Assembly: GCF_026571515.1 (NCBI RefSeq)
Contig: NW_026857081.1
Coordinates: 1-64,000, forward strand
Origin: Ruditapes philippinarum
Taxonomy: Eukaryota
Reading direction: 5' to 3'
Length of the DNA stretch: 64,000 nt
The notes below the pieces were generated by a model that worked only from the letters and a program-made list of their open reading frames with translations, was not told the origin of the DNA and ran no database searches. Below are positions 1 to 64,000 of the stretch, in pieces. Numbering within the stretch: the first letter of the stretch is position 1; each line of letters starts with the position of its first letter. A program made the translations under genes and the position numbers.

Positions 1-731
1 ATTTTCCAATAAATTTTGTGCTAGAGTTGTAAACCTTGTCACATATGATGTGGTTGATGACAAGCAACTTATATTTAAAGTTTGAAGAAAATACCTTAAG
101 AAAATAAAGAACTTATAGTGAAAAAACTTAAAAACTAGAATCAGAAATCTTGAAATTCAGTATATTTGTTGCCATAGCAACCAGAATTTTCAACATAGGA
201 AGATAAGAAAAGGATGTGCATAATTTCCATACTGCCATCTACCCATATGTTAAATTTCAAAAAAAATATTTTCAGTACTTTTTGTGTTATCACTGGATCC
301 AGGTTATGTGTAAAATTTGCCATATTTTCAGTCTATTTGTTGCCATAGCAACCAGAATTTTCAACATAGGAAGAAAAAGAAAAAGACGTGCATAATCTCC
401 ATACTGCCATCTATCCATATATCAAGTTTCATAAAAATATTTTCAGTACTTTTTGCGTTATCGCGGGATCCAGGTTATGTGTAAAATTTGCCATATTTTC
501 AGTCTATTTGTTGCCATAGCAACCAGAATTTTCAACATAGGAAGAAAAGAAAAAGACGTGCATAATCTCCATACTGCCATCTATCCATATACCAAGTGTC
601 ATTAAAATATTTTAAGTACTTTTTGCGTTATCGCGGGATCCAGTTCTGTGGACGGACGGACTGACAGACGGACAGACAGACGGACGGAGGGTAAACCTAA
701 AGTCCCCTCCGGTAAACCGGTAGGGGACTAA
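1..731 (-). mobile_element. Non-autonomous Helentron-type (HINE-like) element with ~171-bp internal tandem units, inserted into the viral capsid gene
   Basis: Units recur at 171/342/513 (gccatagcaaccagaattttcaacatagga). A (GGAC/GACA)n microsatellite lies at 650-688 and a terminal palindrome agtcccctccggtaaaccggtaggggact at 701-729. A near-identical inverted copy starts at 63601. Confidence 0.8.
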
Positions 732-1440
732 TAACCATTTTACCATCTACCTGTTGTCTTATTTGTCTTGCAAGTTCTGGGTCAGACACCATATCGAATT
801 CCAAACATATGTTTTTGATTGTATAACTTGAAGTAGCATCTGTTGATTTAATTACTTTTTCATAATCATTAAAAGTAAGTTCATATTCGAGTCTGTCACC
901 AAGACCAGCTTGGTAGAATGGCATATGAGTTTCTAATAGTTCAAAATCAAGTGGGATGCAGAACCTGTTTTTGTATGCTTTTGCTACAGCCTCATCTTCT
1001 TTGTCTGATGAAGCATCTGCAGCACCAATCCTGTGTTTCAACATATTATCTTTACCGATACCTTGATAAGCCATATTTACACGTTCAGGGGGAGACTTCC
1101 ATAAATCGATATAACAATGGTAGATGTCACTGTCATCAATAGACATAACTTCATTTCCACTTATTCTAATTGTTGTTTTCTTAATTATTGCTCTTCCTAT
1201 GCTTTGATATACTGTTGCATTTACATCTTTAGAGTTTAGTTCAATTTCAAATGCTAATCTGACTGATCCGGGAACAATAACATCATTACTACTTAGATTA
1301 GGAAATCTAACTAATAATTGTTGATTTTGGTCAATAGTTGAAGGATTATTGGTTATAACAACACTTTGACGAATTCCTCTTATACCACGTGGTTCTCTTA
1401 ATTTTCTGTAGGGGTTTAATTTTTCTCCAAAAGCCGACAT
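732..1440 (-). CDS. Double-jelly-roll major capsid protein of a Polinton/adintovirus-like virus, N-terminal ~236 aa, interrupted by the Helentron-type element
   Basis: Intronless ORF. Motif order PSTIDQNQQLLVRFP..D....LAFEIEL, GRAIIKKTTIRISGNEV..I, FCIPLDF..MPF..L.YELTFND fits the first jelly roll of PRD1-adenovirus-lineage MCPs. The last residues of the ORF track (SPLPVYRRGL) are read from the inserted repeat. Recognised by eye, not by search. Confidence 0.75.
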
Positions 1441-1483
1441 TTTTAAAGGGAAATTTTTAAGGATATTTTTTAAGTTATAAAAA

Positions 1484-2781
1484 ATGGCTGAAGGCGGATT
1501 TGAATTTGATAATTCTGCGTTTGATAAAGATGACTATGATGAACTGCTTGTAGATGATGATTATGAATTTAATAGAACTATACAAAACCGAAGTGCTCAT
1601 ATTGAGGATATCGGTGATGATGTTGATACAAGAACACAATTAATAGTACAACAGAAACAATATGTAGTTAAAGAATATTACAAGTTGATAAAAGAAAAGT
1701 ATGGTTTAGACCCAGTATATATTGATTATTCAAACTTTGAACTTGGTCCTGATAATAAAACACTATTTTTAAAGTTAAGTGATAAAGATACTCAAATTAC
1801 TTCCAAAAAAGGTGATAGTTTTATAAACTTGGGTTCTTTGGCGAGTAAAATTGGTAGTGGTGGAACAAGTGCAATTAGAGACTTATTAAACTTACCTGAT
1901 TATAGATCTACAACTAAAACATTATCAGCACAAGCGGCTAAAAGTTTGCAAAAGGTGAAAGATGATCTACCTAATGTTGATAATATAGAAATGACTGATT
2001 TACCTAATGCAGCTGAAACTGCAGTGAAAGTAATAGAAACATCATTTACTGACGAACAAGAAACACAAACAGATATGACAAAAAGAGAAATGGATGGTGT
2101 CCTCAAAGCGATGACTACTGTAAAAGAAGAGATTGCAAATGAATTAGTTAAGCTATCTGGAACAAATAAAGACATAGAAAAAGAAAAACATAAATTAGAA
2201 CAAGCCAAATCATATAATGATGAATTCCAAATAGAGAGGATAAGTAGTCGAATAAGAGATTTGGAGTCTGAGAAAAGTGCAAGACTGGAAGTAATTAATG
2301 TTAATAGAGATAAATTATGTAGTCAGATAAATAGGATAAAGGAAACAATAAATAAAGTATTAAAAGAAGACACTACATTAGCTGAAAGAATAAAAACTTT
2401 ATTTAGAGAACAAGGAATTACAATTGTTAGTGTTTTAACTGCTTTTGGTATGATTATTGGTGTTATTGTTTTTTATTGTGTTTGTTGACTTTTATTCCTA
2501 CTACCGGTGGTGGAACTACAACACCTAAGCCTCCTCCAAAAGATGGAAGTGGTGTAAAAGACTGGATAAAAAAACAATTATCAAATCTTGGTAAACTGTT
2601 AGCTACTCTAGCTGGTAAAGCTGCGGAAGCATTGCCCGGTATTATCGGTGCTATTGTTTCTTGGTTGCTTTCCTCTGCCAGCAAGGTTGTATCCTGGTTT
2701 GGTGAACATTTATGGGGATTAGTTGTTCTTGTTGCCGGAATGTTGTATGCAGCTGCTAATAATTATATTAATAAAAAGTAA
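1484..2781 (+). CDS. Viral coiled-coil protein with C-terminal hydrophobic/amphipathic helices; one frameshift near 2470
   Basis: ORFs 1484-2488 and 2476-2781 overlap at a T-rich stretch. Acidic N-terminus, long heptad region, hydrophobic GITIVSVLTAFGMIIGVIV, G/T/P linker, then amphipathic/TM segments (LPGIIGAIVSWLL; LWGLVVLVAGMLYAAA). Confidence 0.65.
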
Positions 2782-2787
2782 AAAAAA

Positions 2788-3442
2788 CTATATAATTTCC
2801 AATACACAACTAATTGTTAATCCATTGTTGTTTATTTTCTGACCTTTCTCATCACAAACGCTTATACTTAATTCAGAAATATCACCATGTGTCAATTGTT
2901 TGTATTGTGGATTACTAAAATTAATATGAACAATATCACGGAATGGTTTATTTTCAACGGGAACAACACAAAGAATAATTACTAGGAGCACCATCAAAGA
3001 AAATTGTAAGAGCTATTTATTTGCTCAAGATGAACATATAGTTGTTTATAAGGTGCAAAATCTATTGTTCTTTCACCGTAGTGCGTTTTCATTAGCAGTA
3101 AATCTTTTTCTTATTTTTAAACCCTAATATTTGTTTTAAACCTTTACTTATCTTCAAATCATCGGAAGTAATTAAAGAGGCAATACCATTTGTTTCATTT
3201 ACAGTTAATGTAATATTATAATTGTCAAATATATCTACTATTTGTTGAAAACTGTAAATAACCATTTGTAATCTTGTTAGGACTATCAAAATCCTTTTGT
3301 ATATATTCATCAATTAAATTATAACCAACCTATAGTATAAGTAAAACTCTTTAATCCGATTCTCTTATTTCCACATTTGTTATCTATATATAATTGTAGC
3401 AAATTTATAGTGTTTTTCAATGTTTGAAATTGTTTGATACAT
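2788..3442 (-). CDS. Minor capsid (penton-like, single jelly roll) protein, frameshifted
   Basis: Reconstructed across indels: MYQTISN...IGLKSFTYTIGWYNL...NGY.SFQQI...LKQILGF...DFAPYKQLYVHLEQI..DGAPS..LCVVPV...FSNPQYKQL..ISELSISVCDEKGQKIN..ISCVLEII. The size (~210 aa) and C-terminal pattern fit Polinton-type pentons. It includes track ORFs 2788-2997 and 3092-3313. Confidence 0.65.
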
Positions 3443-3457
3443 TTTTAATAAATAAAA

Positions 3458-4816
3458 ATGACAGTACATAATTTCAAATACAACGAAGAAGTAGTTTATA
3501 ATACAGGAGGAATATATCTTAAAAACATATAGATATAATAAAACAATCCGTTATTATTTCATCAGATAAGAAAAGTTTTAATGCGGATTTCCCAAATATA
3601 TTTGAAAATTACTATTACCAAAAATATCATCAAATGAAATAGTTAATAGATGGAATGCAGAGTGGTTTATCGTTTTGGCAAAATCAATTAAACTTCGCTA
3701 TATGGTGTGCTACTACAGGTTGTGGTATAGATGTTAACAACCATTTAAAAGCAGGGTTGACCGGTTCACTATTCTTATTTCACGTTTACTACCAAACAAG
3801 AAGAATATTATTTTAATTATCTATTGCCCTACCACAAGATGAAAGTTGGAATGCATTTAACAATTTACAGTTATGACCGTGGTGCTTACGAAAGAATATG
3901 TAAAGAGTTTAATGTAGACCCTCATTCAGATTGGAGACAAAAAATGTATAAAAGTGGAAATGGTTTAGGATTAGTTCACACAACTAGTCACTCTGCATGG
4001 AAACGAACTGATTTTAGACATGATTATTCTTCAAAACATATTTCTAGCAGCATATCATCTGATTTAGATTTATCAAAAATGACATTCGGGGCTGAAGTTC
4101 CAGGTGGAAGAAAATGTGGTATTTCATCATGCGAATATCTTACGCCAAAGAAAATTCATATTGATTATATTCAACAAGAAGATGATGTTAAGGATGTTTG
4201 GACCACATTTATTCTCGATACTTCAGAAGGTTTTACGAGATCAGGTGTCAACGGATTAACGAATCCATAAGGACTTATTGTTGGGCTATTCTTGGTTCAC
4301 AATCTCAAACTAGAACGGATATACTTGGAACAGGAACAGCTTTTGATGCGCAAAAACAATTTCTTGCAAACGTTGAGGATGCAATTAATAGTCCCGTAGA
4401 TTTACCGAGTCAAATTAAAAGATATCAAAATACATTAAAATATGCCAGAAGTAAAGTTGATTATGTTTACGGAATTGGTTTGTACATGTCTCCTAGTAAT
4501 ATGGAATTAAAAATCGGAGAAATACAAAATTATAATAATAAAATTATAGTAGCAACTAATTATCAAAAACTTGGATTGAATAATGATGTTAATATTCAAC
4601 CAATTCCAACAATTCTACATACAGAAATTAAAGGAACACCAACAAAGAAATCTTTACCAGAACCTAAAGAAATAGCTAAATCTTTAGTTAAATTGTCAGA
4701 TGGAATAGAAAAAAAAAGAAAAAAATATATCAATAGAACACGAAGATAAAAAAACAGCATTAATCGTCGGTAGTATAGTAATAGGTATTATTACATTTTA
4801 CTTTTTACGAATATAA
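3458..4816 (+). CDS. Uncharacterised ~450-aa viral protein with a C-terminal membrane anchor, several frameshifts and a stop
   Basis: ATG at 3458. Pieces read ...FWQNQLNFAIWCATTGCG...FHVYYQTRRIL...YDRGAYERICKEFNV...DWRQ...RINESIRTYCWAILGSQSQTR...FDAQKQFLANVEDAIN...YNNKIIVAT, ending in KKTALIVGSIVIGIITFYFLRI* (TAA 4814-4816). It joins track ORFs 3824-4270 and 4198-4749. Confidence 0.6.
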
Positions 4817-5238
4817 TTTTTTCGGATGCCTATATATCATTTTTTTCTTTTTTAGGGGTGTGGGTTCGAGTCCCGCCGGGGATAAAATTTTTTTTTTTTT
4901 TTTTTTGGGGCGGGTACTATAATTATCATGATTTAAGCATTTCTATACTTTTCAATTTGGGGTATAACGGGATGATATTTTTTTTTTAGGATGAGGGAGA
5001 GGAGTAATATAATATATTACTATCAGTTCTTAAGATATTTTTTACACTTTTCCCAAACAACCTTCATTTGTGGACAGATGTCTTTCATATTTAGGGAGAA
5101 GATATCTTGCATTGTCTTCCTTTTGATTGAGTTAGAGTTCAGTTGGTCAAGATCAGGAGTGCCATAGATATGGTTTTCAATGTATATTTCATAAAAACAC
5201 AATAAAATATTGATGTTTTAAAAATATTGATATATGTC

Positions 5239-7527: not shown

Positions 7528-11196
<3,669 letters not shown>

Positions 11197-13390: not shown

Positions 13391-14012
13391 TATGTTTGTC
13401 AAAAGATTGAACAATTCTGTTTTAAACTGCAGAAACAGCTGTTTAGTGTTTTGCAATGCCTGTAAAGATAAGAGCGATCGCTATTACAATCTGCCTTGTT
13501 TTAGAGGTTACCATTCTATAAATTTTAAATCAAAAATAACATTTTGAAAGCATCCTTATAATGAATAACATCATCATTAAACAATTTGTATATATATGGA
13601 CGACGGAGTCTATTCATAAAAATATTTTGTCACAATGTCTTTGATGACCACTTCGTTGATGAGCAAAGTGCAAAATCACTATATCTCAACTATACATTTA
13701 TTTTGCGTCATACATATTATTCTTTATCCACTGATTTTAAGTTCATTTTATACACGAAGAAAAGGCAAAGTAGACTGTATATTGTATTACGTATAATCAT
13801 TAAATGGGAAGGTTTTAAGTATCTTGTCTTCACATTTACTCGTTCCTTTGGACAATTGTTTGATGTGATAAAACGTTTTCTTTGTTTTGTAAACTCATTC
13901 AATTTTAAACATGCCTTTCACTTTAGGACTATTTTAAAACCCGACATGTGTTTTGGAATTTAATAACGAATATTTCATAGAACTTTATTTGATATATCGC
14001 ATGTGCCGGAAA

Positions 14013-17000
14013 ATGATACGATATTTCATTTTTACTAAACAAATTGCATTGCACGTGCTTTTTATTCACTGGTGTGTTTACCAAATATTAAATTTAGAAT
14101 GTTTGCAGTGTGATAATGAATTCAAAGTGATTTGTAGACAACCTTGTCCATCTTATTGTAGACAATGTTCATCGGACGATTTATGTCTGACATGTTTATC
14201 AACACCGTCAAATTTTGTAGATACTAGTTCTTTTCTATGCGTTTCAAGTTGCGAGGGTCAATGTGTCTTAAATAAAGGTTGTTTAAAAGACTGTAGTGTA
14301 CTGCGCGTGATCAACACATATCGTCCTGTTCTTTGTGTAACAAATGACACTTGCCTTAACTGCTTGAAATTAACTGGAAAGTGTTTGCAATGTGATGCCG
14401 GAAGATATGGCAATCTTTGTCAAAAAAGATGTGGATATTGTCAAAGAGATTTAAAAGGACTCGTTAAATGTAACACAAATACTGGCAACTGCAGGAGTGA
14501 CTGCGAAAATGGATATTTTGGTGAACGTTGCGATAAACCATGCAAAAATTGTATTTCAGTTACAAAGTCAAAACAATGTGAAAAAATAACTGGAGAATGT
14601 ATTTCTGGTTGTTTACCAGGCTGGTTTTATAAGACATGTAATGAAACGTGTAGCAGCATGTGTCTTCATAGGACATGTCATCAAATAAGTGGATACTGTG
14701 TTGAGGGTTGTATAACTGGTTGGTATGGTAACAAATGTGAAAAGCATTGTAATGATAATTGCAAAAGGAGCTGCGATCAAATAAGCGGAAACTGTTCTGA
14801 GGGTTGTATAACTGGTTGGTATGGAAACAAATGTGAAAAGGATTGTAATGATAATTGTAAAAATAGATATTGTGACAATTTAAACGGATATTGTACATAT
14901 GGTTGTAGTCAAGGATGGTTTGGCGAAACATGTGAAAGCGTATGCTCTGACAAATGTTTGCACAATTCCTGTCACAGTTCAGCGGCATGCAAATACGGTT
15001 GTTTGCCAGGGTGGTTTGGCAATACATGCGAAACAAGTTGTAATATTGCTTGCTACAATAGATCATGTGATCAGACAACTGGAGTATGTGAATTCGGTTG
15101 TATAAATGGATTCAATGGTCCGAAATGCAGTGAAATTGACCATGTTTTTACTAACGACAGCATTTCACTAGATGGACACAAGAGAGAGGATAAAACAGGT
15201 AAGTATTACTTCATTACAATATTTCATCGCTTTGAAAACGTTATTCAGTTAGGATATGCTTTAGTTAATATGACTTTTGCAATATTTCAGAAAAAGGGTG
15301 TTTGTTTGTTTCTTACAGTTGATGACTATGACATTAAACCAATAGTATATGGCATTTTCGGGAGTATATCTGGGATGTTTGTCACAGGACTGGGTTGTAT
15401 AATGATTCTGTTAATAAGAAAGTAAGTTAACTATTCTTAATAAGAAAGTTTATTTATAACATATCTATGAAATAAGGGATTTTTTAGTTAATGTTATTCA
15501 TTTTATTAATCAATCTAATTTAGAATTCAATTTTACGTAACACTGTCGCCATTGTTAATTAAATATAGTTCATTCACCTATTCTCCAGAATTTCATTTCC
15601 ATATATGCATGCAAATTATATTAATTTGAACATCATGGCTTTAATCTTACGAGATATACAGCAAATACTGCAACTGATAAAGTTATGATTTATTCTTATT
15701 GTCAGAGCCATTACAAGATTCCGATGGTATGACTATCTTAACAACTCTTTACAGGGAAATGTTTCACCAATATATGATGAGATTTTACAAACCAATGGTA
15801 AGATTTCGATATAACTGTCATAGAAATAAATAGATAATGATATGTTTACAATTTTTAAGATGTTTATAAATTTTGTGTACTAAGTGTACATGTATACTGT
15901 TTTATCCAAAGGGTACACGAATTTTAATAAGTGTGTGCTATAAATAGTATAAAATGAAAGCAATGCGTGATGGAAGCTATCGTGTTTTTGATACAGCTTA
16001 AGGTTATAATTTATGCAAAATTCATAAAGTTTCAATGTGTAAAAAGCCATAAGCTTAAAGACATACTATGGAATCAGTTCCTGGAGCATATCAGTTATGA
16101 GAAATGGGTGTAAAGTAACAACGGCTTGCTCAATGGACTAGATATTTAAGATTACCAGACCGGCTCATTAACCAATCGGCCATGACGCCTCGTTTATTCC
16201 TAGTGGTTGTTACTAGAGTTATGGAAATGACGTATATAATTTTATTCATAGTTGACTTCAGGAAAGTCTCAATACTATACTGATTTTTAAATCAATTTAT
16301 TAAATAGATATAGCATTAGCGTTCCCTATAAGTAGATATATCGTTATTGCATGTCTTTGGCAATACATCTGCTGTTGCTAGTTTCCTAGTGACACAGAAT
16401 TCTGTTTTTATTTAATTTCTTTGAAAAAGAGGGGGTATATATTGTTTTGCTAATGTCGACCGGTCCATCCGTCGGTAGACCACATGGTATCCGCTAATTA
16501 TCTTAAAAACTATCTATCACAAAGTTTTCATATTTTAAACACGGATAAATCATAGCTAGTAGATAACCCCTATTGATTTTAGCTTAAAGGTCAATGTCAC
16601 AGGGGTCTTAAATGTCAGAATGGTTTCCGCTCATTATCTTGAAAACTATTTATTACAAAGTCGTCATATTTCAAATATTGATATGTCATAACTAGTAGAT
16701 GATTTTAAGGTCACTAGGTCAAAGACACGGGTACCTTAAATGTCAGAATGGTTTCCGCTTATTATATTAAAAACTTTTAATCAAAAATCTACATATTTCA
16801 CATATTGGTTGGTCATATGTAGTAGATGACAAATATTGATTTTGGGGTCACTAGCTTAAGGTTTAAGGTCACAGGGGCCCTAAATATCAGAATAGTTTCC
16901 TCTGATTTTTTTAAAAACTATTTATAACCAAGTCTTTATATTTCACCCATTGATTGGCCATATGTAGTAGATGATCCCTATTGATTTTGGGATCATTATT

Positions 17001-25491: not shown

Positions 25492-27180
25492 GGTATATAT
25501 AATGCATGTTGATATTGTAGCTATAATGTTCACTGTTACTATTTATCGGAACATGAAATAGTAAAACGTTATTCAGAAAACAATACGGTAATCGATTTAT
25601 AAAATTTAAAAGATTAAACGGAATGAAACATCCATGTAGTGCTAAGTAACGTAAATATTTTCCGATTTTTCTATGTACCGATTTTTTCACTTCGATGTTA
25701 ATTTTTCGTTTAAGTTAAGCCGTATTTTGAAACGGGGCATGCGCAAAACAATTTTTGTAGACTGCTCCTAATGATTTTACGCTTAAAATGAGATTCATTC
25801 ACTACAATCAGATACGCAAAAGTGGATGCCGCCAGCAATCAGTCTGAACACTATGGAGAGGTCTGATGACCTCTCCAATGAAACAAACGAAAAACTTTCG
25901 GATCAATTATATGGATATTTTATCCTGTTGTAGACTACAGATGGCTGCTGCGTATATAGATTTCACTATCAAAACAACCATGAAAAATGTTTTATATCAA
26001 TTATTTTTATATGTTTCTCTGTTTTATCAATTCGTAAGACACATAACAGAAACTAAATCCACAAATTTAAAGGCCATTCTATTAATTATATGTCACTAGT
26101 TTGCATCCATAGTATATAACTTTAGAGTAAACTGCAGTTAACTTCCGTTATCTCTAATTCGTCCCGATTTTCGTAAAGTTGAGATAACGAAATGTTAAGA
26201 TTTGACAGATTTAGAATTCTTGTTATAATAAGGGTTCTCAATTATTTGATGTTATATCTTTTTCTTAACATATATCTTCTATTATTATTTGCTATAAATA
26301 TAGTAGTAAAAATATTGTTTTGTTTTTACCTCTTGAGCGTTCAGTCAATTCAGTCGAGAAGTATTGTTTTATTGCAGAAATATGGATTTTATCTGGACAA
26401 ATCATAAAAGAGGTAAGGTGACACAATCGCTTAACAGAATGATACATGAAATGATTTGGTTTCTTACCAATTAAGCTACGTAAAAGGTGAACTAAACCTA
26501 ATTTGTTTAATAATCAAAAATAAACTTAAAAAGCAGTCATTGAACTCGTGTCCGTAACATGCAGTTTATTAATAATTCTCGATAGAAATATGCCAGTAAC
26601 TTACTGCAGCTTACTGCTGGAGCGTTTATTCAATGTCGGAAAAGCTAGTTAATTGTTTGTACGTTCTTATTTAAAACGACAATGATTCAGTGGTTCATTT
26701 GTACATGACTTGTAATTAGTAATGATTTAAAAGATCTCTAGACATTATTGTTTCAAGATTGTTTTAAAAGGTTCAATGAAAACTTAGTAATGCTAATAAA
26801 GAATGCCCATTAAAAGCAAATTATCACATGATTAAGATTGTCAGTGTAACAGGCAAGTCTGTTTTTATCACATATTTACAAAATATTTGCATTTGGAATA
26901 TAAAAATAACGCGGTTATATTTCGAATGACAACAAAATGGACGGAACTATACATGTGGAACATTAAATTTAAATTTATATTCTAAAACTACAATATATAT
27001 GCAAGTTCGTATTTTAGAATAATAAGCGAGAGAAAATGAAAAGTTCATACAAAGACATAGGTATTTGTATTAATTATCTAAATGTGAAATTAATACAGTT
27101 ATATAATTAACGCGTACTACTGATGTTCTTACACTTGTGAATACAAAATTCACAATTTTACTCTACAGTTAATAACAAAA

Positions 27181-28884
27181 ATGACGAAACTGTTCAATTA
27201 TATCAAACAATTGTTTCTACACAAGCTTTTTATATACTGTTGTGTTTACCAGATTACGTATTTACAATGTTTTCAATGTGATAAAGAATTTGAAGTAGTT
27301 TGTAGTCATGTGTGTCCTTATCATTGTAGAAAATGTTCGACTGACGATATGTGCTTAACATGTTTATCAGCACATTCAAATTTTACGGATTCTGTTTCGT
27401 TTATATGTTCATCAATTTGCAAGAATTTGTGCATTTTAAATAGAACTTGTTTGAAAGGATGTGATGTGATGCGCGATATAAATCCACATCGTCCTGTTCT
27501 TTGCGCGGTCAAGGAAACATGCTTACAGTGTTTAGAATTGTCAGGGAAGTGTTTGCAATGTAATCCCGGAAGATACGGCAGTCTTTGTGAAAAGAGTTGT
27601 GGACATTGTCAAAGAAATTCTGAAGGACCCGTTGAATGTGATAAAATCAGTGGCAAATGCATCAGTGAATGTGAAGATGAATATTTTGGTCGACGATGTA
27701 ATAAAAAGTGCACGCACTGTGTGTCCGCTTCGCAGCAGCGAAACAGGTGTGAAAAACTAACAGGAAAATGTGTTAACGGCTGTTCGCAAGGCTGGTTTTA
27801 TGAAACATGTAATGAAACATGTAGTAAGATGTGTCTCCACGGAACATGCAATCATAGAAACGGATATTGTGATGTTGGATGTGTAACTGGTTGGTACGGA
27901 AACAAATGCGAAAAAATTTGTAATAAAAACTGTATTCAAGGGTCTTGTGATCAATTTAACGGATATTGTACTAATGGTTGTCTCCCAGGCTGGTTTGGTA
28001 ACAAATGCGAACTGAGTTGCAGCGATGTTTGCCTCAATAATTCATGTGACCAAAATTCTGGAATATGCAAAGAAGGAGAACTTAGTGATTAATGCTTCCG
28101 AGGGATCACTTTGTTTCCAGAATTTAGAACTTTCATGAAAAAAAAAGATTTTTTTTATATAACTTCTCTATTTCTTTATGTATCTACCTCAAACTTCATA
28201 CATACCTCTATTCGAGTTTTCATGTAATTCAATAAAGTAATTTGGTTTTTAGAGGATATTATCAATTATCTGAGAAAATTGGATCTTTCATTATCTGTTG
28301 TATAAACGTAATTTTCTTACTAGGGGAGGCAAACTAAACACATTACTAAGATATAGACAAACTAAAAACTAAAAAGATTTAAGTTCAGTTATGTCATTCA
28401 TTCATTCAATGGCATAATTCAATGACCAATGGCCCTTCAGAATGTTGATGGGGTTCTAACCGGTAGGGGACTTATGGATTGCTTGCAATGCTATGATATT
28501 TGTTTGTTGTACTTGATATTATTTGGACTTTAGTTAAACAGCATATAAGTATTCATATGTAACATTTTCTTTTGCTTCTAAAGATAATGTAGAAGCAAAT
28601 ACCAATAACGGAACAACGACATGTCAGCACATGGAACCAACACTAACTTACAATGTTACAAACACTGGCAATAAGACATCTATCAATTTAAGGCAAGAAC
28701 TAATCTTGATCAAAGAGAAATACAAATTAGGCACTGCGGTCATATCAAAGAAACAGAGCGAGTGAATTGTACGTCAGACACTTCAACTGACAATCATTAT
28801 TATGAAGAAATAAAAGAACGGTCATATATTTGTATAGATGATGACAATGAAATAGTATATTATTATTTACACCCTATCAATTAA
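27181..28884 (+). pseudogene. EGF-repeat receptor C: ectodomain exon truncated at ~28085, TM and IYDEI exons absent, frameshifted last exon 28584-28884
   Basis: The 303-aa ORF is collinear with gene B and stops inside the repeat gtgattaatgcttccgagg. The downstream exon encodes ..TSINLR/(shift)..HYYEEI..IVYYYLHPIN*. Confidence 0.8.
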
Positions 28885-31378: not shown

Positions 31379-34300
31379 TTAATTCACTGCGTGTAGATAA
31401 AGCACGTCGTCATGATGTTTATTTGTTACTAATTCTTCACTTTGATCGGTTGAAGCGTCTAAAGTAGATTCCATGTGATATTCGTTTTCGCTGTCCTTTG
31501 ATGATGAATATTTAGATTGTTTTAATGAGTATTGACCTACATTTTCTACATCGTCATCGCTGTTTCCGGCCAATTTATTATCTTCCCCATCCTTTGATCC
31601 ACATGAAGTGTCAGAGTTTAGGCGTGACGTTGAGACTCTGGTTTCATAAGTTCTCAGGCTAAGATAAGAATTTTCTCTCGCAAGTCCTTGCTTTGTGGTA
31701 TTGTATTCCGCGTATGCATCACTATATACCGTGACATCAAATGGTAGCATGACTAAACTTTCTTCAGATCTGTCTTTCGCTTGTGTTTCTTCTTGAATTC
31801 CTCCTAATAAATGCGAGGAGGGGCCTCCAAATTTTGTAGCACACGTTGGTTGAGAGTCAGTATCTATCATAAAAAATAACACTATAAAATGTGTCAGCTG
31901 ATCGAACACTGAATTTCCATTACATAATAAACATTATTCCTTAAAGCTACATTACATAAATATGTAAAAATATTTTTGCCATCGGCCTAAAAACCAAGCA
32001 TTCTACAGTTTCATTAACCTTTTTAACAATATCGTTATAAATTTCATCAAATACTGTTCATAAATTAGGATTTTAAATGGAAAACCCCACGTTAACACTT
32101 AAAGTCGTATACGAATTTTAACATGCAAATGAAGACAATAATCAGCTCGTGTATGCGCTACGTCACGGTGTTATAGTTGCTATCCATCGATCCGGAACAC
32201 AGAAAATATAAGATTTTCTTGTGCAAACACAATTTAACCGTTCAAGTTTCACGGTGCACTAGGCCTAGGGTTCAGTAAAAATAATCATCTTATAAAAAAG
32301 ATGAAATTTTTATTTAAATATCCGTTACAATGCGGAAATATACCGTTAAATAAGGACTGCTAGTTATAGTCATGTTTGTTGATTTAACATTGATGTACGG
32401 ATGATCTGAAGGCGGAGTTTCTCATGCAAACAAAATTTTGTACTTCCGAATTCGCCACAATGAGGTTGCACATTTGTATGCTCATAAAACTCATTTTGGT
32501 TGTCTGGAAACCAAAATAAGACCTGGAGTCGATATGAAATGTCGCTATTTCTGTTTTTATGAAATTTATTAAATGTAACTTTAAGTTATTAAATAAAAAT
32601 GATAAAAGTAAAACTCTTGGTATTTTTCCTTCTGATCTGGCTATATTACTTTCATACGTGTAAGTGACTTCTATACACATTAGCACGAATGTATTCTTGT
32701 GTTTTACTTAATTTCAAAATCAAGACAGAGCTTCATTTGGCACAGGTAACTTTCAGTTCCATTTTTTGGAACACATAAATGGAGAAATGAGACTACAGAT
32801 CACAATGTGAAGTAAGACTTAAATTCGGTGCACTTTGAAACAATCATAACGATTGCCGTTATTGTTAAGAATTTTAAAATATAATATTACATTTCGTTAA
32901 GCTCTTAACTCTTAGTATAAATCCATTTCTAAATTGCACGGGTGGTGTGTTTTTTCGATTTTCGTACCATTATATATTTCCTTGCTATATTTACACATAT
33001 ATGATAAAAATGAATAAATATTAAGCTTCATCATAAGATAATAAATGTAATAATTCAATACCATTTAAATCTTTAATTTCATCATAAATTGATTCTTCTC
33101 TAGTGTTTTTCTTCATTTCCGACAAGACAATCTCCCTACCGATGTTTTCGTTTCTGTACACAACAACCCTACAATTACAATTTATATTTATAAATATACT
33201 TCTGCTCTTACAAAAATATCAATTATTATAAAGATAGAAATAGCAGAAAAAAACAAAAATTGTATTGGGCTGTTTTTCAGTGTGTGTGGGGGGAGGGGGG
33301 GTTAGAAAAAGTGCCAAAAAAGAAAATCTCAATATTTTATACCTTGCTTTCAATGAAATATTTTATTTCTGGTAAAATAATAGAATATTTATTTGAACCG
33401 TAACAATTTTCGAAAATTTCAACAGACAATTTGCCAAAATAATAGCAAATTAACAAAATCAAGTAAAATGATTTCTGCGATTAATTATCGTGGAACAACT
33501 TACCTCCAGATTGTGTAATATCTTACCTATGACGGACGATTAGAATACAAAGGAAACATAACAGTATAGAAAACACGCTTAATAGACAAATCACCATAAT
33601 ATTGTCCATAGAAAATATGATCGTTGTGGAAACTAAAAAAAGATAAACAACAGCTTATGTAATGATATGTATATAGGTACAAGTTTCTGTCTTCATTATA
33701 ATTTTTAATAGCATAAATTATGTCAAGTTTAATGGAAAAAGTATAATAATTCAATAAAGTAAAACCTCGTTCAAATCGTTTGTATTTGTATTTCAATAAT
33801 TTCACCTTGTGCATTATAAAGTTTGGTCAATTTACTAAGCATGAATAATTAATGTACAATATTAATCAAGGATTGTATATACATGTAATTCTTACTTTCA
33901 TAACTTTTCGTGACACCGTTTCCAAACCGCGAATCACATGAAAGACAGGCGGTTGTGTAGTTTTCACATGAAGCTTCTAAGCGTGTTTCACTACAGTTCC
34001 CCTCGCAGTTTTCACCATAGTACCCTTCAATGCAGCCTCTGTCACAAACTCCAGCCATCTGTTCACAAGATATATTAAAACAAGTTCTACTACATGATGT
34101 GTTGCATAACTGGCCAAACCAACCAGCAACGCAGCCGAACAGGCACTTACCACTACTTTGATCACATGTTTTCTTCTCGCATGTGTTACTACATGTTTTA
34201 TTACAAAATATACCGTATTTACCTGGTACACATCCATTTACACAATGCTGTGTAGTTTGCTCGCACGTGCGATTTAAGCACGTGCTGTTACAAATATTAT

Positions 34301-35186
34301 TACAACTGTTCCCGAACCAGCCATTTAAACATCCATTTTTACAGTGCCCTGATATTTGATGACATGTGTTGCCAATGCAAGTCGTGCTACATACCCTCTT
34401 ACAATTGTTTCCATACCGACCAGGAATACAACCCTTTAAACAAAGTCCGGTTTTCTGGTCACATGCTTTGTTAGCACACGTTTCACTACATTTGCTTTCA
34501 CATGTATCTCCATACCAGCCTGGCATGCAGTCATTGCAGGTTCCGGAGCTTTGGTTGCAATAATTATTTAAACATGTTTTGCTGCAGATGCTTTGGCATT
34601 TTTCATTATATCTACCAGCTACACATCCAAATATACACTTTCCAGAATGTCTTTCACATTTTCTACTATTTGAATGCGAATTAAAACAATATTGACTACA
34701 CTTCTTATCGCAACGGTTGCCGTAAAATCCATCTAAACAATCACCTTGACAATGCCCGGTGACAATATTACACGTTACGATTTCATCTTCATTAGGACGG
34801 CAATTTCCGCACTTTTTGTCACAGTGAGTTAAGTTACCGTACAAATTATTTGTGCACTTCTCGCATTGGCCTCCCGAAATTTGAACACATTCCGCGCAAA
34901 CACGAAATGGGGGACAGTAGATACAACAGTTATTGCCCTCTTTGCCTCTGTAACATCCTCTTAAATTTGTTCCATTAGAAATAAACAACATATCACAACC
35001 AACTTTACATATTGACCTACACGTGCTATTCGAGAGCTCGTTCTCACATTCTAAGCACGAATAAAGTAAAGAGCATTTTGCACACCGTTCTGGACACAGA
35101 TGAAAGTCGACCGTTCCAAAATAAATGTCATTACAAATGTAGCATGATACCAATGGTAAACATAAAAGAAGTTTTACACCCGCCAT
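31379..35186 (-). CDS. EGF-repeat single-pass receptor D; exons 35186-33896, 33632-33527, 33153-33062, 31863-31379
   Basis: Signal MAGVKLLLCLPLVSC, EGF array in one exon, TM IMVICLLSVFSILLCFLCILIV, ESIYDEI exon, and last exon with SYLSL, GQYSL and LYLHAVN*. Phases 1,2,1. Confidence 0.88.
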
Positions 35187-38100
35187 AATCCGAAATAGAT
35201 TGTAGTTCAAGAATCAACTGTCATACTTCTGATGAAAAAATACCTCTGCAAAATGACGTTTCATATTATTTTCAAAATCAAAAGATATACAAAACATTAT
35301 ACAATGTCGTCGTTGTAAAATCATCGATACTTCTTAGATTAAAATTCTTTTTATTCTTTTATACTGAAAATAAAAGCAGATTTGACTGAAATTTAGAGAT
35401 CTATGTCCTAAACATAAGATTTTTCATGCAAATTCCTAGTAGAAAAGTACCTGCCAGATTACGTGGTTTGTTAAGATATAAATGTGTCTTACAGATCTCA
35501 TAAATATAAAATTCAGCATATACATGTGTGATTTCATGGTAAGTGTATATAACGTATTTAATCAAAGAAAAGATTACTAACCTTTTCAAAATAGTTAAAA
35601 TCTGGAAAAAAGTGTGATCCCTCAGGTACATTAATCACAACAAAATTACATGAAAACTGCTGACTCGGTTTTATTGGGTCTGTCTTTTCAAAACAATAAC
35701 TCAATAGAATCACTTAAAACATGTTTTTTATGTACATAATAGTACAGTTTTATACTAACGAACAATAAAGGTAAGTATGATGTTGTAGCTTTTCTACAAT
35801 CAAGATCAAAGTTCAGTATTAAAACTAAATGAATCGTGACATTTGCTATGCTTTACATAGTCTGATATCCCGCATCATACAAATACGGACTTTAAGATGG
35901 TGACATTGTTTAATATGAACTGAAAAGAAAACACTCTGAGAGTGACATTTTAAATCAATATATAGACTTACTCTAAAGGATTATATGTCATATCAAATAA
36001 TGTGCTTTGTGAAGGCATATTTAAGTTTTAACCTTTCGACAGCATTGTTTGGTTGTATATCGTAGTTTCTAGATTCAAAAGATGTACATGTATTTTTTAA
36101 AATATTTTACTATGTACATCGTCAACTTTGACGGTTCAATTAACATGTTATGAGAGATATTTTCTGTTACATAATGGCATAAGTTGAATCATTTACAAAT
36201 CTCAAAAATGTATGTTATCTTTTGTTTTGATTTTCAGTTCTTTATCATCTCAGTCCGAATAGACAGAGACCAGGAACGAGAAACGTGTAATGAAATAATG
36301 GACCTTTTCTGTTTAAGCACCCGCTTTAATAGCTAAATCAATTGCTCACAAATAGTGTTACAGTCAATAAGTGAACATTTATAACACAAGTGAGGCAAGT
36401 GAATCGCTAATCAGTCAATAAACATAACAATGCATATAAACACTGGAAATGTCCATTCTTTATCATACATGTATTTATATAAGGCGTTTCCATTATTTTA
36501 TAATCTATTATGAAAGTATGTAATTAATATATATAGTTATACGACAATTCCTCCATCACAGCAAAGCTATTCAAAAAGTGTGTTTTACGTCTGTACGAAG
36601 GCAGTAAAAGGACACCTTTTGACATGCAAGATTTGTTTCTAAAAGTCTTGTGTTACCGTTCTTTTACTCACTCGTAAGGAACATTTGGCGCCATTCAACA
36701 TTGATTTTGTCACATGCTTATCTGAATCCTTGTGAGAATCAGCATATAAAAAACGCGATGATTAAACCTTAAAACTCTGCATGTTTCTTGAAATATTGTT
36801 ATTTATTTACAATACCTGTGACGAAAGCGACAATTCTTCGAAGGGGAATGTTAAATATCGCTACTTATCTTGCGTTCGACTATTTTCAGTGCTTGGTAGT
36901 AAAACTAGGTCCTGGATAATATAGCATTTTTATAACATCGAAAAGGTCCATAGTTTGTCAAAATCCACATTAAAGTGAGGGTCTTGGATAGTGACCTCGT
37001 ATTATTTTCACAAATAAGAGTGTAAAGTTTCAACCTATTCCCATTACCAACAAAGTAAATACTTAACCCAAGTGTGACCCTTAAACCGCCACGTGGGTGA
37101 GTACAATAGTTCTACCATTTTTTCTAACAGTCGAGCTAAAGCTCAATCTTAACAGGCGACATTTTATATGACTCAAACAGGACACCTTAGAAGCGGACGG
37201 AAAGTTGTAGCGAACCAGATAGCGCAACTCAGGATTAAATTCAGTTAATCGGTAAAGAATTAAATAAATTGAATGGCCGTTTCCAGGAACGACGTAGCTT
37301 ATTATTTTAGCATTGATTGGTTTTTGATTTGTTTATTGTTGATGTTGTTTTTGACGACACTAACAGTTGTCCGTTGAAAAATACAGAAACTCTATCTTTT
37401 CTTGTTTATTGTCGAACATTCTATCAGAAAAAAACAACAACAAAACAATAACATGACATTCACTGTCCCTTTACTACTACTACTACAACAGCAACAAAAT
37501 AATAAAAAAATCAATGACCATTGCGTTAAAAATACGAATAAGGAAAATAACCTTATTTCCGTTCCAAAAGTTATCCATATTACATTGACACAATACATGT
37601 TAAGTGTCTGTTTCAATGTTGAACGACAAAATATGACTCTCTAGATACTGGAGGCAGCCATTATAACATTGATAATGAATGAAAGTGAATTCTGTCCGAT
37701 TAAAATAAGTGCACTAGAATTCCATGCAAATACAATTTGTCTACACATTGCACTGCCTAAGCTTATAGGCCATGTAAATATTTTCAATAGTTTTATATTT
37801 TCAAATGGACATACTTTATTTTCCAGTAGATAACGTCAGATACACTTACTCCTATTTTCTTTTAAAGCGTCTTCTAACAGACAGTTCGCCAGGATAAACA
37901 ACAAATTGTCCCAGGCGAAGTCGAGGATAAATTTTTGTTTGTCCTAATGAATTCCTACTGTACTGTACCATTACAAAATTTAACACTTCCAGTTATGGTA
38001 TATATGCAGTTGAAGACGATAATGTTTACATTATTCAGTCATATCATGATATAATTGGTTGTGCAGGTTATTCAGTTATTATATTATGCATTTTTATTGC

Positions 38101-42605: not shown

Positions 42606-45600
42606 ATGGATCTGAGATGGCTTATACTTATCACGTTACAATATGTGAAATTAGACGATGCAGGTAACACAAAATTGAATATCTTTTTCTACTTTGTCAT
42701 TGACTAGTGCTATGATATAAAATCAGTGAAATATGAAAATGTTGAAGGTTGTCCAATGTGAGTGAAGTGCCTTCAATACATAGACACTAGCATTGTTATT
42801 TAACCAAATTTTGGGTTAATCTAATCTTTATAATTGCTGTGCAAATTACAATATATACGTGTATCAACCTCATGTAGTTTATTTTCCTAACACATGGATT
42901 TTCTGAGATACATCTACACAATCATCAATCAATACAACTATGTCGATGTAAAATAATAATATGGGTCATTTGTGCACGAATGTGTCTTCACAATAAGCAT
43001 GTCTTAATGATATTATCATTTTATAATGTACATTTTTTTCTAAACTACTTGTATTGTAAAAAACTGCAAAAATGATTCTTTTCGCTTTGACTGAGCCTGT
43101 TCATGTACGGCAGTGTAAATTCAATCTTCCAAGCGTTCCTAGCACCGGTTTAATCAAAATTTAACATTTATTATATTGTGCAGTTACAAGAATTAAAACT
43201 AAAACATGTTTTATTCACGATGTAACTCTTTTCCTTTGAATTTTCATTATTACTAAACACTGTCGTTGTGTATTTAAACCAAAACCATTGTCGTTTATTT
43301 ACAGCTTTTAAACATTTTATTCTAAATGTTAATCCTTAATGGTTGTTGACATTTTAATTAATAGGTGATTGTCCCATTGAGCACTGCAGACACTGTACAA
43401 CTCCTAAAGAATGCTCTGTATGCACGTTGGGCTGGTTTGGAGAACAATGTGAGCACAAATGCAATTACAATGATTCTACGTGTTCAATATGCAGTGATTC
43501 ATATCTCAGAAAAAGTTTCAAAAAGTTTGACAAAGATTTTTGCTTTGGATGTTCAAAAACTGAGTATATTTTAAACGGTACCTGTAAACAATGTCCACAA
43601 AACTGTGACTCATGTATTGATTTGATTAATTGTACTAAGTGTAAGACAGGATACTTTGGATCGTCATGTCAGAATGAATGCCCTGTTAATTGTGAAAGCT
43701 GTAAATCTCCTGATTTGTGTACCTCTTGCAAAAATGAATGGCAGGGTAGTTCTTGTCAATGCAGTCCAAACTGTTTAAAAGAGGGAAATTCGTCTGAATG
43801 GTGCAATGAGAATGGGACGTGTACGAAAGGTTGTATCAAAGGGAAAAGAGGAAGCATGTGTAACTTAGATTGTCTAGAGAGTGATTCATGTATTGAATGT
43901 GATCAGTATACTTATCGATGCCTAAAGTGTTCAAATGGGTGGTATGGGACAATTTATTGCAATAAAACATGTGGACATTGTTTTCCTGACAGTAAAGGAG
44001 ATATTGTCTGCAATATTGATGGAGGAACATGCAACAATGGATGTGCTGACGGATATTTTGGTCAAACTTGTAATGATAAGTGCGAAAATTGTCTGGCTCA
44101 TACGCAAGACGTCGTGGTGAAGTGTAACAGTACAAGTGAAAAATGTAACACATCTTGTTTTAATGGTTTCTTTGGTAAAGACTGTGAAAAAGAATGCAGC
44201 CCAAGCTGTTTTGATCCAATAGCAAACACAAGCAAGTGTGACAAAGAGAGTGGCCAATGTATATATGGTTGTATCCCTGGTGTGTATGGTGAGAGATGCG
44301 ATATGAATTGTAGCGTATATTGGTCTAATACTACTTGCAATCAAAGTACGGGCCAGTGTATGAACGGGTGTATTAAAGGATGGTATGGCTTGAACTGCAC
44401 ACTTGCTTGTAGCGATACTTGTCTCAATCAGTCGTGTAATATATCGTCGGGGTATTGTGATGTCGGGTGTGAATCTGGTTGGTTTGGGGATAGTTGTCAA
44501 GACGCGTGCAGCATGAAGTGTGCTAACAGATCGTGCTCAAGAGAATCTGGATTGTGTGATAATGAATGTTTAGATAGTATTAATGGTACAAACTGTTTAA
44601 GAAGCTGTATTGGAAAATGCAAAGACAACTCGTGTGACAGACATACATCGTGGTGTATACTCGGTTGCGAGACTGGATACGAGGGGCTCTTTTGTAATGA
44701 AAGTAAGATGAAAAATATAAACATATAAATAATACCTCATAAAATATAAATGACAACGCACATTATTCGAAGCATACTTTTTATATTAAAATAGTAAACG
44801 TATCCACCCAAAAGGGGTGTCCGTTATTGTTGATAACTTTTAAACACTTGCACCTTACCGCTTTAGATTCCAATCACACTCGGGACTTTGGGTTTGTTCA
44901 TGTGAGTAAACTGTCCAGATAGCTTATAGAACGTCGTTGGTTCTACTCTGGTGCGCACTCGTGCCGGAAACAATTCACAGAGGGGCACCTGATGTCTTCC
45001 TCCATCAGTAAAGCTGAAAATTCGTCATATTACCTACCTCTACAACCCAGCAACAGCAAGAAGTATCCATCCGATATTACCTGGTATCACATGATCAAAA
45101 ATGTTTATGCCCACAACTTTTTGTTATACATTTTCAACAGTCATTTATATATTAAACAAACGTTATTACACTCATGAAGTTTTTCTTTCCAATTTATCGG
45201 CATTGTACCTTTTAAGATACATACACACATATTAAACATAATTATATGCACTCCTATCATTGTTTTTAATAATTTTGACTTTAATTATAAGTTACTACCT
45301 TTTTTATAATTTAAGCAATGCAGACCGATTTTGGTTCAATGGTTATAGTTACAAACGCTGGTATCGCTGGGGCTTTAATAGTGTTCTCGATTTTCTTTGT
45401 AGTGTCCGTCGCCATACGGTAAGAAAAAGCGCATGATTTATATTCAACCACAATCTAAAATATGTTATTTTCTATTAGATTTTCTGGAATCATTTTCTCT
45501 TCTATCGTTAAGGTGAGCTCTTGTTTTAAACTAAACGAGGAAGCGGCGTACAAGGGACTAAATATGTGATTTATGTTTGAAATTAGAACTTTTTGTTATA

Positions 45601-62762: not shown

Positions 62763-63600
62763 TATTATTCCCCACCGAAAATTTTCGGCGGAGGATATAG
62801 AAATAGTCTCCGTCCGTCCTTCCGTCCGACATTTTTGTCCGGAGCATATCTCTAAAAGTATTTGAGTTATCAACTTGAAACTTCATAGGTGGATAGACCT
62901 CATTGAGGAGGAGTGCAGTGCACAAGAATGATAACTCTACCTTGCATGATTTTTGAGTTATTGCCCTTTGTTATTTTTCAAAATTGATTTTTTGTCCAGA
63001 GCATAACTCCAAAAGCCTATGAGATATTAACATGAAACTTCATAGATCATAGATCTCACTCAGGAGGTGTGCAGTGCACAAGAATGATAACTCTACCTTC
63101 ATAATTTTTGAGTTATTGCCCTTTGTTATTTTCATACCTAATTTTTCACCTGAGTGGAGCATAACTCAAAAAGTGTTTGAGATATCAACATGAAATGTCA
63201 TAGGTGGATAGATCTTATTGAGGAGGATGTTGTGCGCAAGAATGATAACTCTTCCCTATACAATTTTTGAGTTATTGCCCTTTGTTTTTTTTCATGCTAT
63301 TTTGTCCAGAGCTTATCTCAAAAAGTATTTGAGGTATCAACTTGAAACTTCAAAGGTGGATGGATCTCATTGAGGAGGAGTGCAGTGCTTAAGAATGATA
63401 ACCTTACCCTGCATTATTTTTGAGTTATTGCCCTTTGTTATTTTTCAAAATAAATTTTTGTCCAGAGCATAACTCAAAAAGCCTTTGAGATATCAAAATG
63501 AAACTTCATAGGTGCATAGATCTCACTCAGGAGGTGTGCACTGCACAAGAATGATAACTCTACCTTTTATAATTTTTGAGTTATTGCCCTTTGATATTTT
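62763..63600. mobile_element. HINE-like element with ~157-bp units, interrupted at 63600 by another element
   Basis: 5' palindrome ccgaaaattttcgg, (TCCG)n, and repeated gagttattgccctttg. Confidence 0.8.
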
Positions 63601-64000
63601 TAGTCCCCTACCGGTTTACCGGAGGGGACTTTAGGTTTACCCTCCGTCCGTCTGTCCGTCCGTCAATCCGTCCGTCTGTCCGTCCGTCAGTCCGTCCGTC
63701 CACAAAACTGGATCCCGCGATAACGCAAAAAGTACTGAAAATATTTTAATGAAACTTGATATATGGATAGATGGCAGTATGGAGATTATGCACGTCTTTT
63801 TCTTTTCTTCCTATGTTGAAAAGTCTGGTTGCTATGGCAACAAATAGACTGAAAATATGGCAAATTTTACACATAACCTGGATCCCGCGATAACGCAAAA
63901 AGTACTGAAAATATTTTTATGAAACTTGATATATATGGATAGATGGCAGTATGGAGATTATGCACGTCTTTTTCTTTTCTTCCTATGTTGAAAATTCTGG
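63601..64000 (+). mobile_element. HINE-like element, same family as 1-731
   Basis: tagtcccctaccggtttaccggaggggactttagg + (GTCC)n + 171-bp units; inserted in a T run. Confidence 0.85.

Follow-up and report, generated by a model that had tools for sequence, protein, structure and literature searches.

Introduction

Maverick-Polintons are assumed to be naked viruses, as adenoviruses are, and some nematode Mavericks reportedly carry a fusogen. According to one report, which also mentions that ATPases resembling those of Polinton-like viruses (PLVs) occur among Octocorallia, Hydrozoa and Bivalvia, no virion of a Maverick-Polinton has been observed (10.64898/2026.06.19.733378). Bivalve genomes are rich in PLVs (10.1101/2025.04.19.649669), and cnidarian major capsid proteins (MCPs) fall outside the Maverick-Polinton MCP cluster (PMC10120064). 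Polinton-3_NV from Nematostella vectensis is listed with a length of 16,575 bp, an MCP and an ATPase, and with neither penton nor protease (PMC4028283, Table S1); its type of MCP is akin to those of PBCV-1 and PgVV (PMC4028283, Fig. S3). Here we describe a stretch of 64,000 nucleotides from Ruditapes philippinarum (the window), the start of contig NW_026857081.1 (C5568) in a 1.4-Gb genome, which contains a decayed remnant, the right-hand quarter, of a DNA virus of the Polinton-3_NV type that is integrated in many copies in this genome.

The capsid genes of this virus are accompanied by a constant group of predicted membrane proteins, and no maturation protease was found in this module. [quoted passage not shown] An earlier prediction made from the window's sequence (the original prediction) had taken the membrane proteins for virion components. 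That they are virion components is an inference, which draws its strongest support from a late-domain gene that lies outside the window.

The integrated element

Bases ~733-5025 of the window are the right-hand 4.2 kb of an integrated element of ~16.3 kb. The MCP fragment has at least 54 matches on at least 39 contigs (contigs counted by hand), many of them at 97-99% identity, and we retrieved 40 kb around 10 of these matches. One copy measures 16,342 bp between AGTAGT...ACTACT ends and is flanked by a 6-bp duplication. Terminal inverted repeats (TIRs) of 120-780 bp are present in seven of eight paired copies, and a clean 6-bp target duplication in only one of the three copies whose ends were read. 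The inventory of the element (Table 1) includes an A32 ATPase (Pox_A32, E = 6.2e-13) and an rve integrase (E = 6.3e-12), each above the curated Pfam cut-off. The polymerase open reading frame (ORF; 1149-1193 amino acids) has Endonuclease_7 as its only Pfam match of its own, and its homologues at loci L076 and L090 match DNA_pol_B_2 (E = 7e-19 and 7e-14, respectively). By these matches, a family B polymerase of the protein-primed type, a Polinton feature, appears to be present.

A metagenome scan with the 452-amino-acid membrane-protein gene returned 155 relatives, of which the best 80 were kept as loci; scans of IMG/VR gave no relative. With Pfam, which a very divergent protein could escape, no maturation protease of the adenain or Ulp1 type was found among the ORFs of at least 70 amino acids in the TIR-bounded copy or among 14 of the 22 ORFs left without assignment in the 12 longest metagenome loci. 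The original prediction of a Polinton-type virus is thus borne out by the TIRs, 6-bp duplication, polymerase, integrase and ATPase of other copies, which also supply three of the four genes that it had expected; the fourth, the protease, was not found. It had placed these genes to the left of base 1, but the window begins its contig, bases 1-734 are a repeat and the genes sit in other copies. No further element genes occur elsewhere in the 64-kb window.

All four genes of the window copy are broken: the MCP gene is cut by the repeat, and the other three contain frameshifts or stops (Table 1). Each gene aligns to uninterrupted homologues in the same genome, mostly with 82-99% amino acid identity per segment; two penton segments that read across breaks show 48-49%. 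ORFs and uninterrupted homologues together confirm four intronless genes at the predicted places and strands. Two of the breaks are bridged without gaps by contigs from a short-read run, indicating that they are not simply assembly errors, although this run may share the source of the window. Bases 4839-4913 of the TIR remnant match the TIR of another copy at 84%, and no match to the AGTAGT...ACTACT terminus was found in the window copy.

Capsid genes

A model of the penton, built from an uninterrupted natural copy, has a predicted local distance difference test score (pLDDT) of 93.8, and its best Foldseek matches are the pentons of mavirus (E = 4e-9), Sputnik (6e-4) and an atadenovirus (8e-4). 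The modelled fold confirms a single jelly-roll. The MCP fragment is 98.7% identical to a homologue of 421 amino acids. Pfam Capsid_N, a family of nucleocytoplasmic large DNA viruses (NCLDVs), is matched by 13 of 15 members of the MCP family; these matches are consistent but weak (best E = 2.3e-4), and the one member with a score given falls short of the curated Pfam threshold. A profile search with the MCP alignment gave no match among PDB sequences. The distant members L115 and L118 are 30-31% identical to the MCP of this genome (L115, E = 4e-67) and resemble the published Polinton-3_NV MCP over their whole length, as judged by eye (PMC4028283, Fig. S3). The MCP is accordingly assigned by homology to the putative double jelly-roll type, and the link made by eye would place it with the cnidarian outliers of PMC10120064. 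The predicted jelly-roll capsid therefore stands, through Foldseek for the penton and through homology for the MCP.

In MCP type (compared by eye), ATPase, absence of a detected protease and length (~16.5 kb), the element appears from its sequence to belong to the Polinton-3_NV group. From the MCP match and the Table S1 profile it follows that the lineage has been known since 2014 (PMC4028283) and is not new.

Linkage of membrane and capsid genes

In this genome, 36 of the 40 contigs that contain the coiled-coil membrane-protein gene have an adjoining MCP gene (hand count), and 58 of the 80 metagenome loci hold a capsid gene; both membrane genes are thus linked to capsid genes here and in relatives, as the original prediction required. 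The window's capsid genes are each paired head to head with a membrane gene, with spacers of ~43 bp (MCP/coiled-coil) and ~15 bp (penton/452-codon gene), and such pairs are common in relatives: the penton gene is the head-to-head neighbour of the 452-amino-acid gene in 44 of 58 loci that have a left neighbour, and of the 22 loci with both an MCP and a coiled-coil gene, 18 show the two in head-to-head position. The complete four-gene alternation, in contrast, is conserved in 9 of the 10 retrieved genome copies (one is arranged otherwise) but in none of the 80 metagenome maps. The usual order in relatives is penton(-) / 452(+) / coiled-coil(-) / MCP(+), followed by the ATPase and small genes, and in a Polinton-3_NV-like subgroup the membrane genes lie in line on one strand. 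Two sites in this genome (G000:C780, L057-L060; G000:C15176, L049-L052) contain the same genes in another internal arrangement.

The genes for MCP, ATPase, three to four small proteins, penton, coiled-coil, 452-amino-acid and late-domain proteins recur in metagenome loci at 26-81% identity. This module is constant while the replicase differs, with an SF1 helicase in L064 and two polymerase types. The positions of these swapped replicases in L064, L076 and L090 are listed in Table 1. Also listed are two genes that the relative L105 carries within its capsid module, one for Bcl-2 (E = 2e-18) and one that is VLTF3-like (E = 6e-4).

Alternatively, a Polinton might have picked up the two membrane genes as host cargo, or they might be ORFs that lie in it by chance. 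Both are found in bivalve gene sets as uncharacterised proteins, their homologues include proteins from Mytilus and Mactra, and 22 of the 80 loci (most of them short) have no capsid gene. However, the genes are intronless, lie within the TIRs and are linked to another element gene in 71 of 80 loci. The ratio of non-synonymous to synonymous substitution rates (dN/dS) of both is 0.15-0.38, similar to MCP and penton (nine pairs, one of them saturated), and these values indicate purifying selection between copies. An origin as cargo or by chance is therefore largely refuted, and we regard it as highly improbable.

The pairs had also been predicted to be co-regulated. An A-rich run precedes 14 of 15 gene starts in the copies of this genome, but it is not kept in GC-richer relatives, so that co-regulation through a shared promoter is unsupported. 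Two raw 'RNA' runs (X23, X24) were rejected as transcript evidence because of loose ends at GATC, equal mates and 69% of reads continuing into unrelated sequence; filed as RNA-seq, they behave like GATC proximity-ligation DNA libraries. Short contigs from total-RNA runs cover parts of the element, and DNA carry-over is possible in these runs.

The late-domain protein

The late-domain gene is absent from the truncated copy in the window and present in other genome copies and in 23 of the 80 metagenome loci. It encodes a protein of ~193-230 amino acids with a hydrophobic hairpin; at least one hydrophobic segment was detected in 14 of 14 proteins and two segments in 10. We analysed its N-terminal tail in 134 sequences, comprising 119 of the 120 homologues with the anchor used and 15 ORFs from loci. 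YPxL is present in 128 of 134 sequences, in 36 of 41 at <80% identity and in 10 of 12 at <60% identity, whereas the mean in shuffled tails was 0.17 and the maximum 3. In the same sets, P[TS]AP occurs in 98 of 134, 19 of 41 and 4 of 12 sequences. Late domains of the PTAP and LYPxL types bind TSG101 and ALIX (PMC4880917). Judged by its motifs, the family thus appears to have what is expected of an ESCRT-budding virus, a conserved P[TS]AP/YPxnL in a membrane-associated protein. Matches to the RTX N-terminal family are weak (E = 4e-4 to 0.02 in 4 of 34 proteins, under the cut-off). Identity with SLATT proteins was considered and rejected after a Pfam search of 34 proteins.

Other membrane and surface proteins

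The coiled-coil family has 639 homologues, and uninterrupted copies are 430-446 amino acids long. They start with an acidic N-terminus and a long helical region, and towards the C-terminus there are two to three hydrophobic segments together with an amphipathic helix. All 78 close homologues of at least 400 amino acids have two to three hydrophobic segments with the amphipathic helix between them, and hydrophobic segments are present in 25 of 25 coiled-coil proteins in a comparison across the module. The motif [FY]xNPx[FY] lies within the first 45 residues in 75 of 94 sequences (28 of 39 at <80% and 12 of 19 at <60% identity; shuffles, mean 0.05, maximum 2), and we take it to resemble the FxNPxY endocytic signal.

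The 452-amino-acid family is large (1794 homologues; 2896 clusters at 50% identity) and has no name in Pfam or PHROGs; its members pass for uncharacterised host proteins in bivalve gene sets. Among the long members, 100 of 117 close and 38 of 67 distant ones have a hydrophobic helix at the C-terminus, followed by a median of one residue, and none has such a helix at the N-terminus. No signal peptide or segment was detected in the protein. Its layout comprises a conserved helical core, a variable beta-rich insert (residues 160-240 are variable), a low-confidence linker and the C-terminal membrane helix, and three near-invariant Cys residues are 95-97% conserved. The structure model has a pLDDT of 88. 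Searched as a whole, it has no Foldseek match at E ≤ 0.001 in BFVD or PDB, and its best VIA-align match among 48,161 chains has a Z-score of 4.5 (93 residues, root-mean-square deviation 3.9), none reaching 5. Poxvirus or NCLDV entry-fusion proteins (L1/F9, A16/G9/J5) and viral fusogens are not among the matches listed for the whole model. The modelled fold thus appears to have no structural match, which does not in itself prove a new fold. The ESM Atlas gave no usable match for this or the coiled-coil protein, and profile searches of PDB sequences with five family alignments yielded nothing significant. Identity as a glycoprotein was rejected on account of the missing signal segment; the number of sequons (496 versus 398-494 in shuffles) is a marginal excess. 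A predicted complex of the penton with the 452-amino-acid ectodomain, calculated without alignments, scored 0.00, which is evidence neither way.

The 139-amino-acid protein contains a hydrophobic segment in 11 of 13 cases; in the same comparison, such segments occur in 1 of 16 MCPs, 1 of 16 ATPases and 4 of 41 pentons. It is conserved among relatives, with a charged helix between hydrophobic ends, and is a candidate small fusion or membrane-shaping protein by its sequence. The fibre gene has tail-fibre matches. In loci L061-L122, a fibre-like gene lies between the late-domain and penton genes and encodes 146-464 amino acids with a common start and a highly variable C-terminal part; its matches are tail-fibre and C1q-like.

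Particle exit

We favour an exit wrapped in host membrane because one membrane protein of the module bears budding motifs. MCP, penton and fibre would form an icosahedral capsid, which the A32 ATPase would fill. The late-domain protein would show PTAP and LYPxL to the cytosol and recruit TSG101 and ALIX, in a manner comparable to orbivirus NS3. With its cytosolic FxNPx[F/Y]-like sorting motif, the coiled-coil protein may mark the site, on an endosome or the plasma membrane, at which it tethers the capsid, and the 452-amino-acid protein, its large domain on the cytosolic or capsid side, may be a membrane-bound assembly or entry protein. ESCRT would then release the capsid within host membrane. 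No module protein has a signal peptide or much of a luminal part, and the outer membrane would for this reason be a quasi-envelope with almost no ectodomain, which fits the retained fibre.

Several observations weigh against budding. Sequence and fold searches found no signal-peptide glycoprotein and no recognisable fusogen in the element, and a fibre gene together with a penton is found in capsids that are naked or have an internal membrane. Egress or sorting proteins that are not structural use late motifs as well. For integrating polintons, replication is expected to be nuclear, and an extra step would be needed to reach cytoplasmic membranes. The copies in this genome lack the Pro of FxNPx[F/Y] and so have a degenerate motif, and canonical NPxY is present in only 1 of 19 divergent coiled-coil relatives. 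The other small proteins are only partly hydrophobic (78 amino acids, 8/15; 137 amino acids, 4/8; 216 amino acids, 4/16). Among the 23 loci of at least 5 kb, 18 hold a capsid gene and five do not. Near-duplicates are frequent among the metagenome loci, and locus counts therefore overstate independence.

The main role of the membrane proteins could instead be to form a lipid membrane beneath the capsid shell, as known from PRD1 or iridoviruses, with ESCRT closing or releasing it and with the 452-amino-acid and coiled-coil proteins as inner-membrane entry proteins that are exposed after uncoating. We consider this unlikely as the main role, and it is compatible with ESCRT-assisted exit. In most of the long loci, the small hydrophobic genes stand in a single run behind those for MCP and ATPase, an arrangement that recalls PRD1. 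A tail-anchored protein with conserved Cys residues and no signal peptide has the topology of pox- and asfarvirus membrane proteins. One relative carries a VLTF3-like gene, no protease was found, and the MCP is akin to NCLDV Capsid_N and to the PBCV-1 and PgVV MCPs (PMC4028283). On the other hand, searches by sequence and by fold did not connect the module with membrane proteins of PRD1 or NCLDVs, and the late and endocytic-type motifs suggest host endosomal or plasma membranes.

The amphipathic helix and hydrophobic hairpin of the coiled-coil protein would also suit a membrane-penetration protein packaged in a naked virion (a role like that of adenovirus pVI or ClyA), with the other membrane proteins as non-structural viroporins or lysis and egress factors. 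Fibre and penton are both present, as such a virion would have, and the sub-threshold RTX matches of the late-domain protein point the same way. Moreover, membrane-active genes are reported in adintoviruses (PMC8502044), holin-like and SLATT genes in polisuviruses (10.64898/2026.10.13.758929) and a ClyA-like gene in Tetraselmis PLVs (10.1101/2025.10.09.676808). However, a 16-kb genome whose capsid module has four to six membrane genes as fixed components exceeds what is reported for such viruses, the tandem PTAP/LYPxL specifically implies use of ESCRT, and none of the 34 late-domain proteins has a SLATT match. We regard a naked virion as the real rival, and as quite unlikely.

Taken further, molluscs and cnidarians might harbour a widespread lineage of small, integrating DNA viruses whose particles have an internal and an ESCRT-made outer membrane, in effect a miniature iridovirus, and whose conserved protease-free module includes a membrane-anchored entry protein of new fold; this extended picture is tentative and somewhat doubtful. 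If it is true, the Polinton/PLV/adenovirus branch would gain its first member with lipid, which would also be a candidate link from PRD1-like ancestors to membrane-containing giant viruses. The late-domain protein and membrane module offer a concrete, testable exit route, and host-membrane exit was not previously expected of this virus group. Searches for particles should target detergent-sensitive fractions of vesicle density, which standard virome preparations may discard.

Other features of the window

Opposite-facing copies of a very high-copy repeat stand at both ends of the window. The left copy matches itself (156-481/327-650), and read depth is in the thousands over the repeat versus 1-130 over the viral part. 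We take the repeat to resemble a non-autonomous Helentron-type element. Four long single-frame Cys-rich ORFs, with one weak EGF match, probably represent host genes with EGF-like repeats that form a tandem family. A short partial ORF resembles a poly(A) polymerase exon in its motif.

Table 1. Features of the window, of the complete element and of related loci
Feature	Position	Strand	Remarks
Host repeat, high-copy, not viral	1-734		171-bp tandem units, then GAC-type microsatellite, hairpin end; adjoins and truncates MCP gene
MCP gene, 5' 237 of 421 codons	733-1440	-	Polinton-3_NV/PLV-like double jelly-roll type, by homology
Coiled-coil membrane protein gene	1484-2781	+	One frameshift near 2470
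Penton-like gene	2788-3442	-	Single jelly-roll; several frameshifts between ~2980 and 3420
452-codon gene, C-terminally anchored protein	3458-4816	+	Frame changes near 3523, 3865, 4240, 4715
Right TIR, inner remnant	4839-5025		Outer part gone; similarity to another copy stops at 5025
Partial ORF	~10894-11050	-
Cys-rich ORF	13938-15422	+
Cys-rich ORF	27124-28089	+
Cys-rich ORF	33852-35213	-
Cys-rich ORF	43358-44725	+
Host repeat, inverted copy	63597-64000
Element inventory, part 1			263-amino-acid ORF; 193-amino-acid late-domain protein; 464-amino-acid fibre-like protein; rve integrase; 72-amino-acid zinc-finger-like ORF
Element inventory, part 2			Polymerase with endonuclease VII insert; ORFs of 139, 78, 137 and 216 amino acids; A32 ATPase; MCP
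Element inventory, part 3			Coiled-coil gene, penton, 452-amino-acid gene (as in window)
139-amino-acid protein	L038:6381-6797	-
Replicase	L064:9970-13359
Replicase	L076:8985-12746
Replicase	L090:10294-13779
VLTF3-like gene	L105:3242-3748	-
Bcl-2 gene	L105:7433-7843	-

Comparison with known systems

The element is similar to Polinton-3_NV in length (16,342 versus 16,575 bp) and in having MCP and ATPase and no detected protease, and the Polinton-3_NV MCP is like those of L115 and L118 by eye. No penton was reported for Polinton-3_NV in 2014, whereas the family described here has one, with a homologue in L115. The available text of PMC4028283 does not take up the membrane genes or late motifs of Polinton-3_NV. 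With group 1/2 Maverick-Polintons (adintoviruses, Polintoviricetes) the element shares TIRs, AG...CT ends, the 6-bp duplication, an apparently protein-primed family B polymerase, rve, A32 ATPase, MCP and penton. It differs from them in its multi-gene membrane module, in an MCP that is apparently of the cnidarian outlier type (PMC10120064), and in that no adenain-type protease was found and no PLA2X or similar gene was seen. PLVs of the Aquintoviricetes (PgVV/Gezel, TsV) have in common with it a PgVV-related MCP (through Polinton-3_NV), no protease and a swappable replicase; unlike them, the element has an animal host, a polinton-type polymerase and an rve integrase. No PLV particle containing a membrane was found in our literature searches.

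The late-domain protein has a functional analogue in orbivirus NS3, a protein of ~200-230 amino acids with N-terminal late motifs, a helical region, two membrane helices and a cytosolic C-terminal part; NS3, as in bluetongue virus, links a non-enveloped capsid to ESCRT for budding (PMC6949946). The motifs are PSAP and PPxY in NS3 and PTAP and LYPxL here, and the likeness is one of layout, with no homology claimed. Iridoviruses bud via TSG101 and ALIX (PMC4880917). Iridoviruses, asfarviruses and the tectivirus PRD1 resemble the element in an A32-type ATPase, a jelly-roll capsid and several small membrane proteins, and differ in that no homologous membrane protein was detected and that the genome here is an integrating one of 16 kb. 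Meld23486, which combines a polinton polymerase and integrase with poxvirus-like virion genes (10.1101/2024.03.25.586562), could be a member of this lineage.

We found no paper in which a Polinton or PLV is connected with late domains, with budding or with a membrane inside the capsid, a weak negative since literature coverage was partial and subscription journals lay outside it; the word 'membrane' is absent from the available text of PMC11161782 and PMC11131425. The lineage is thus one that is already known but uncharacterised, and its conserved membrane and ESCRT module is apparently new to the literature.

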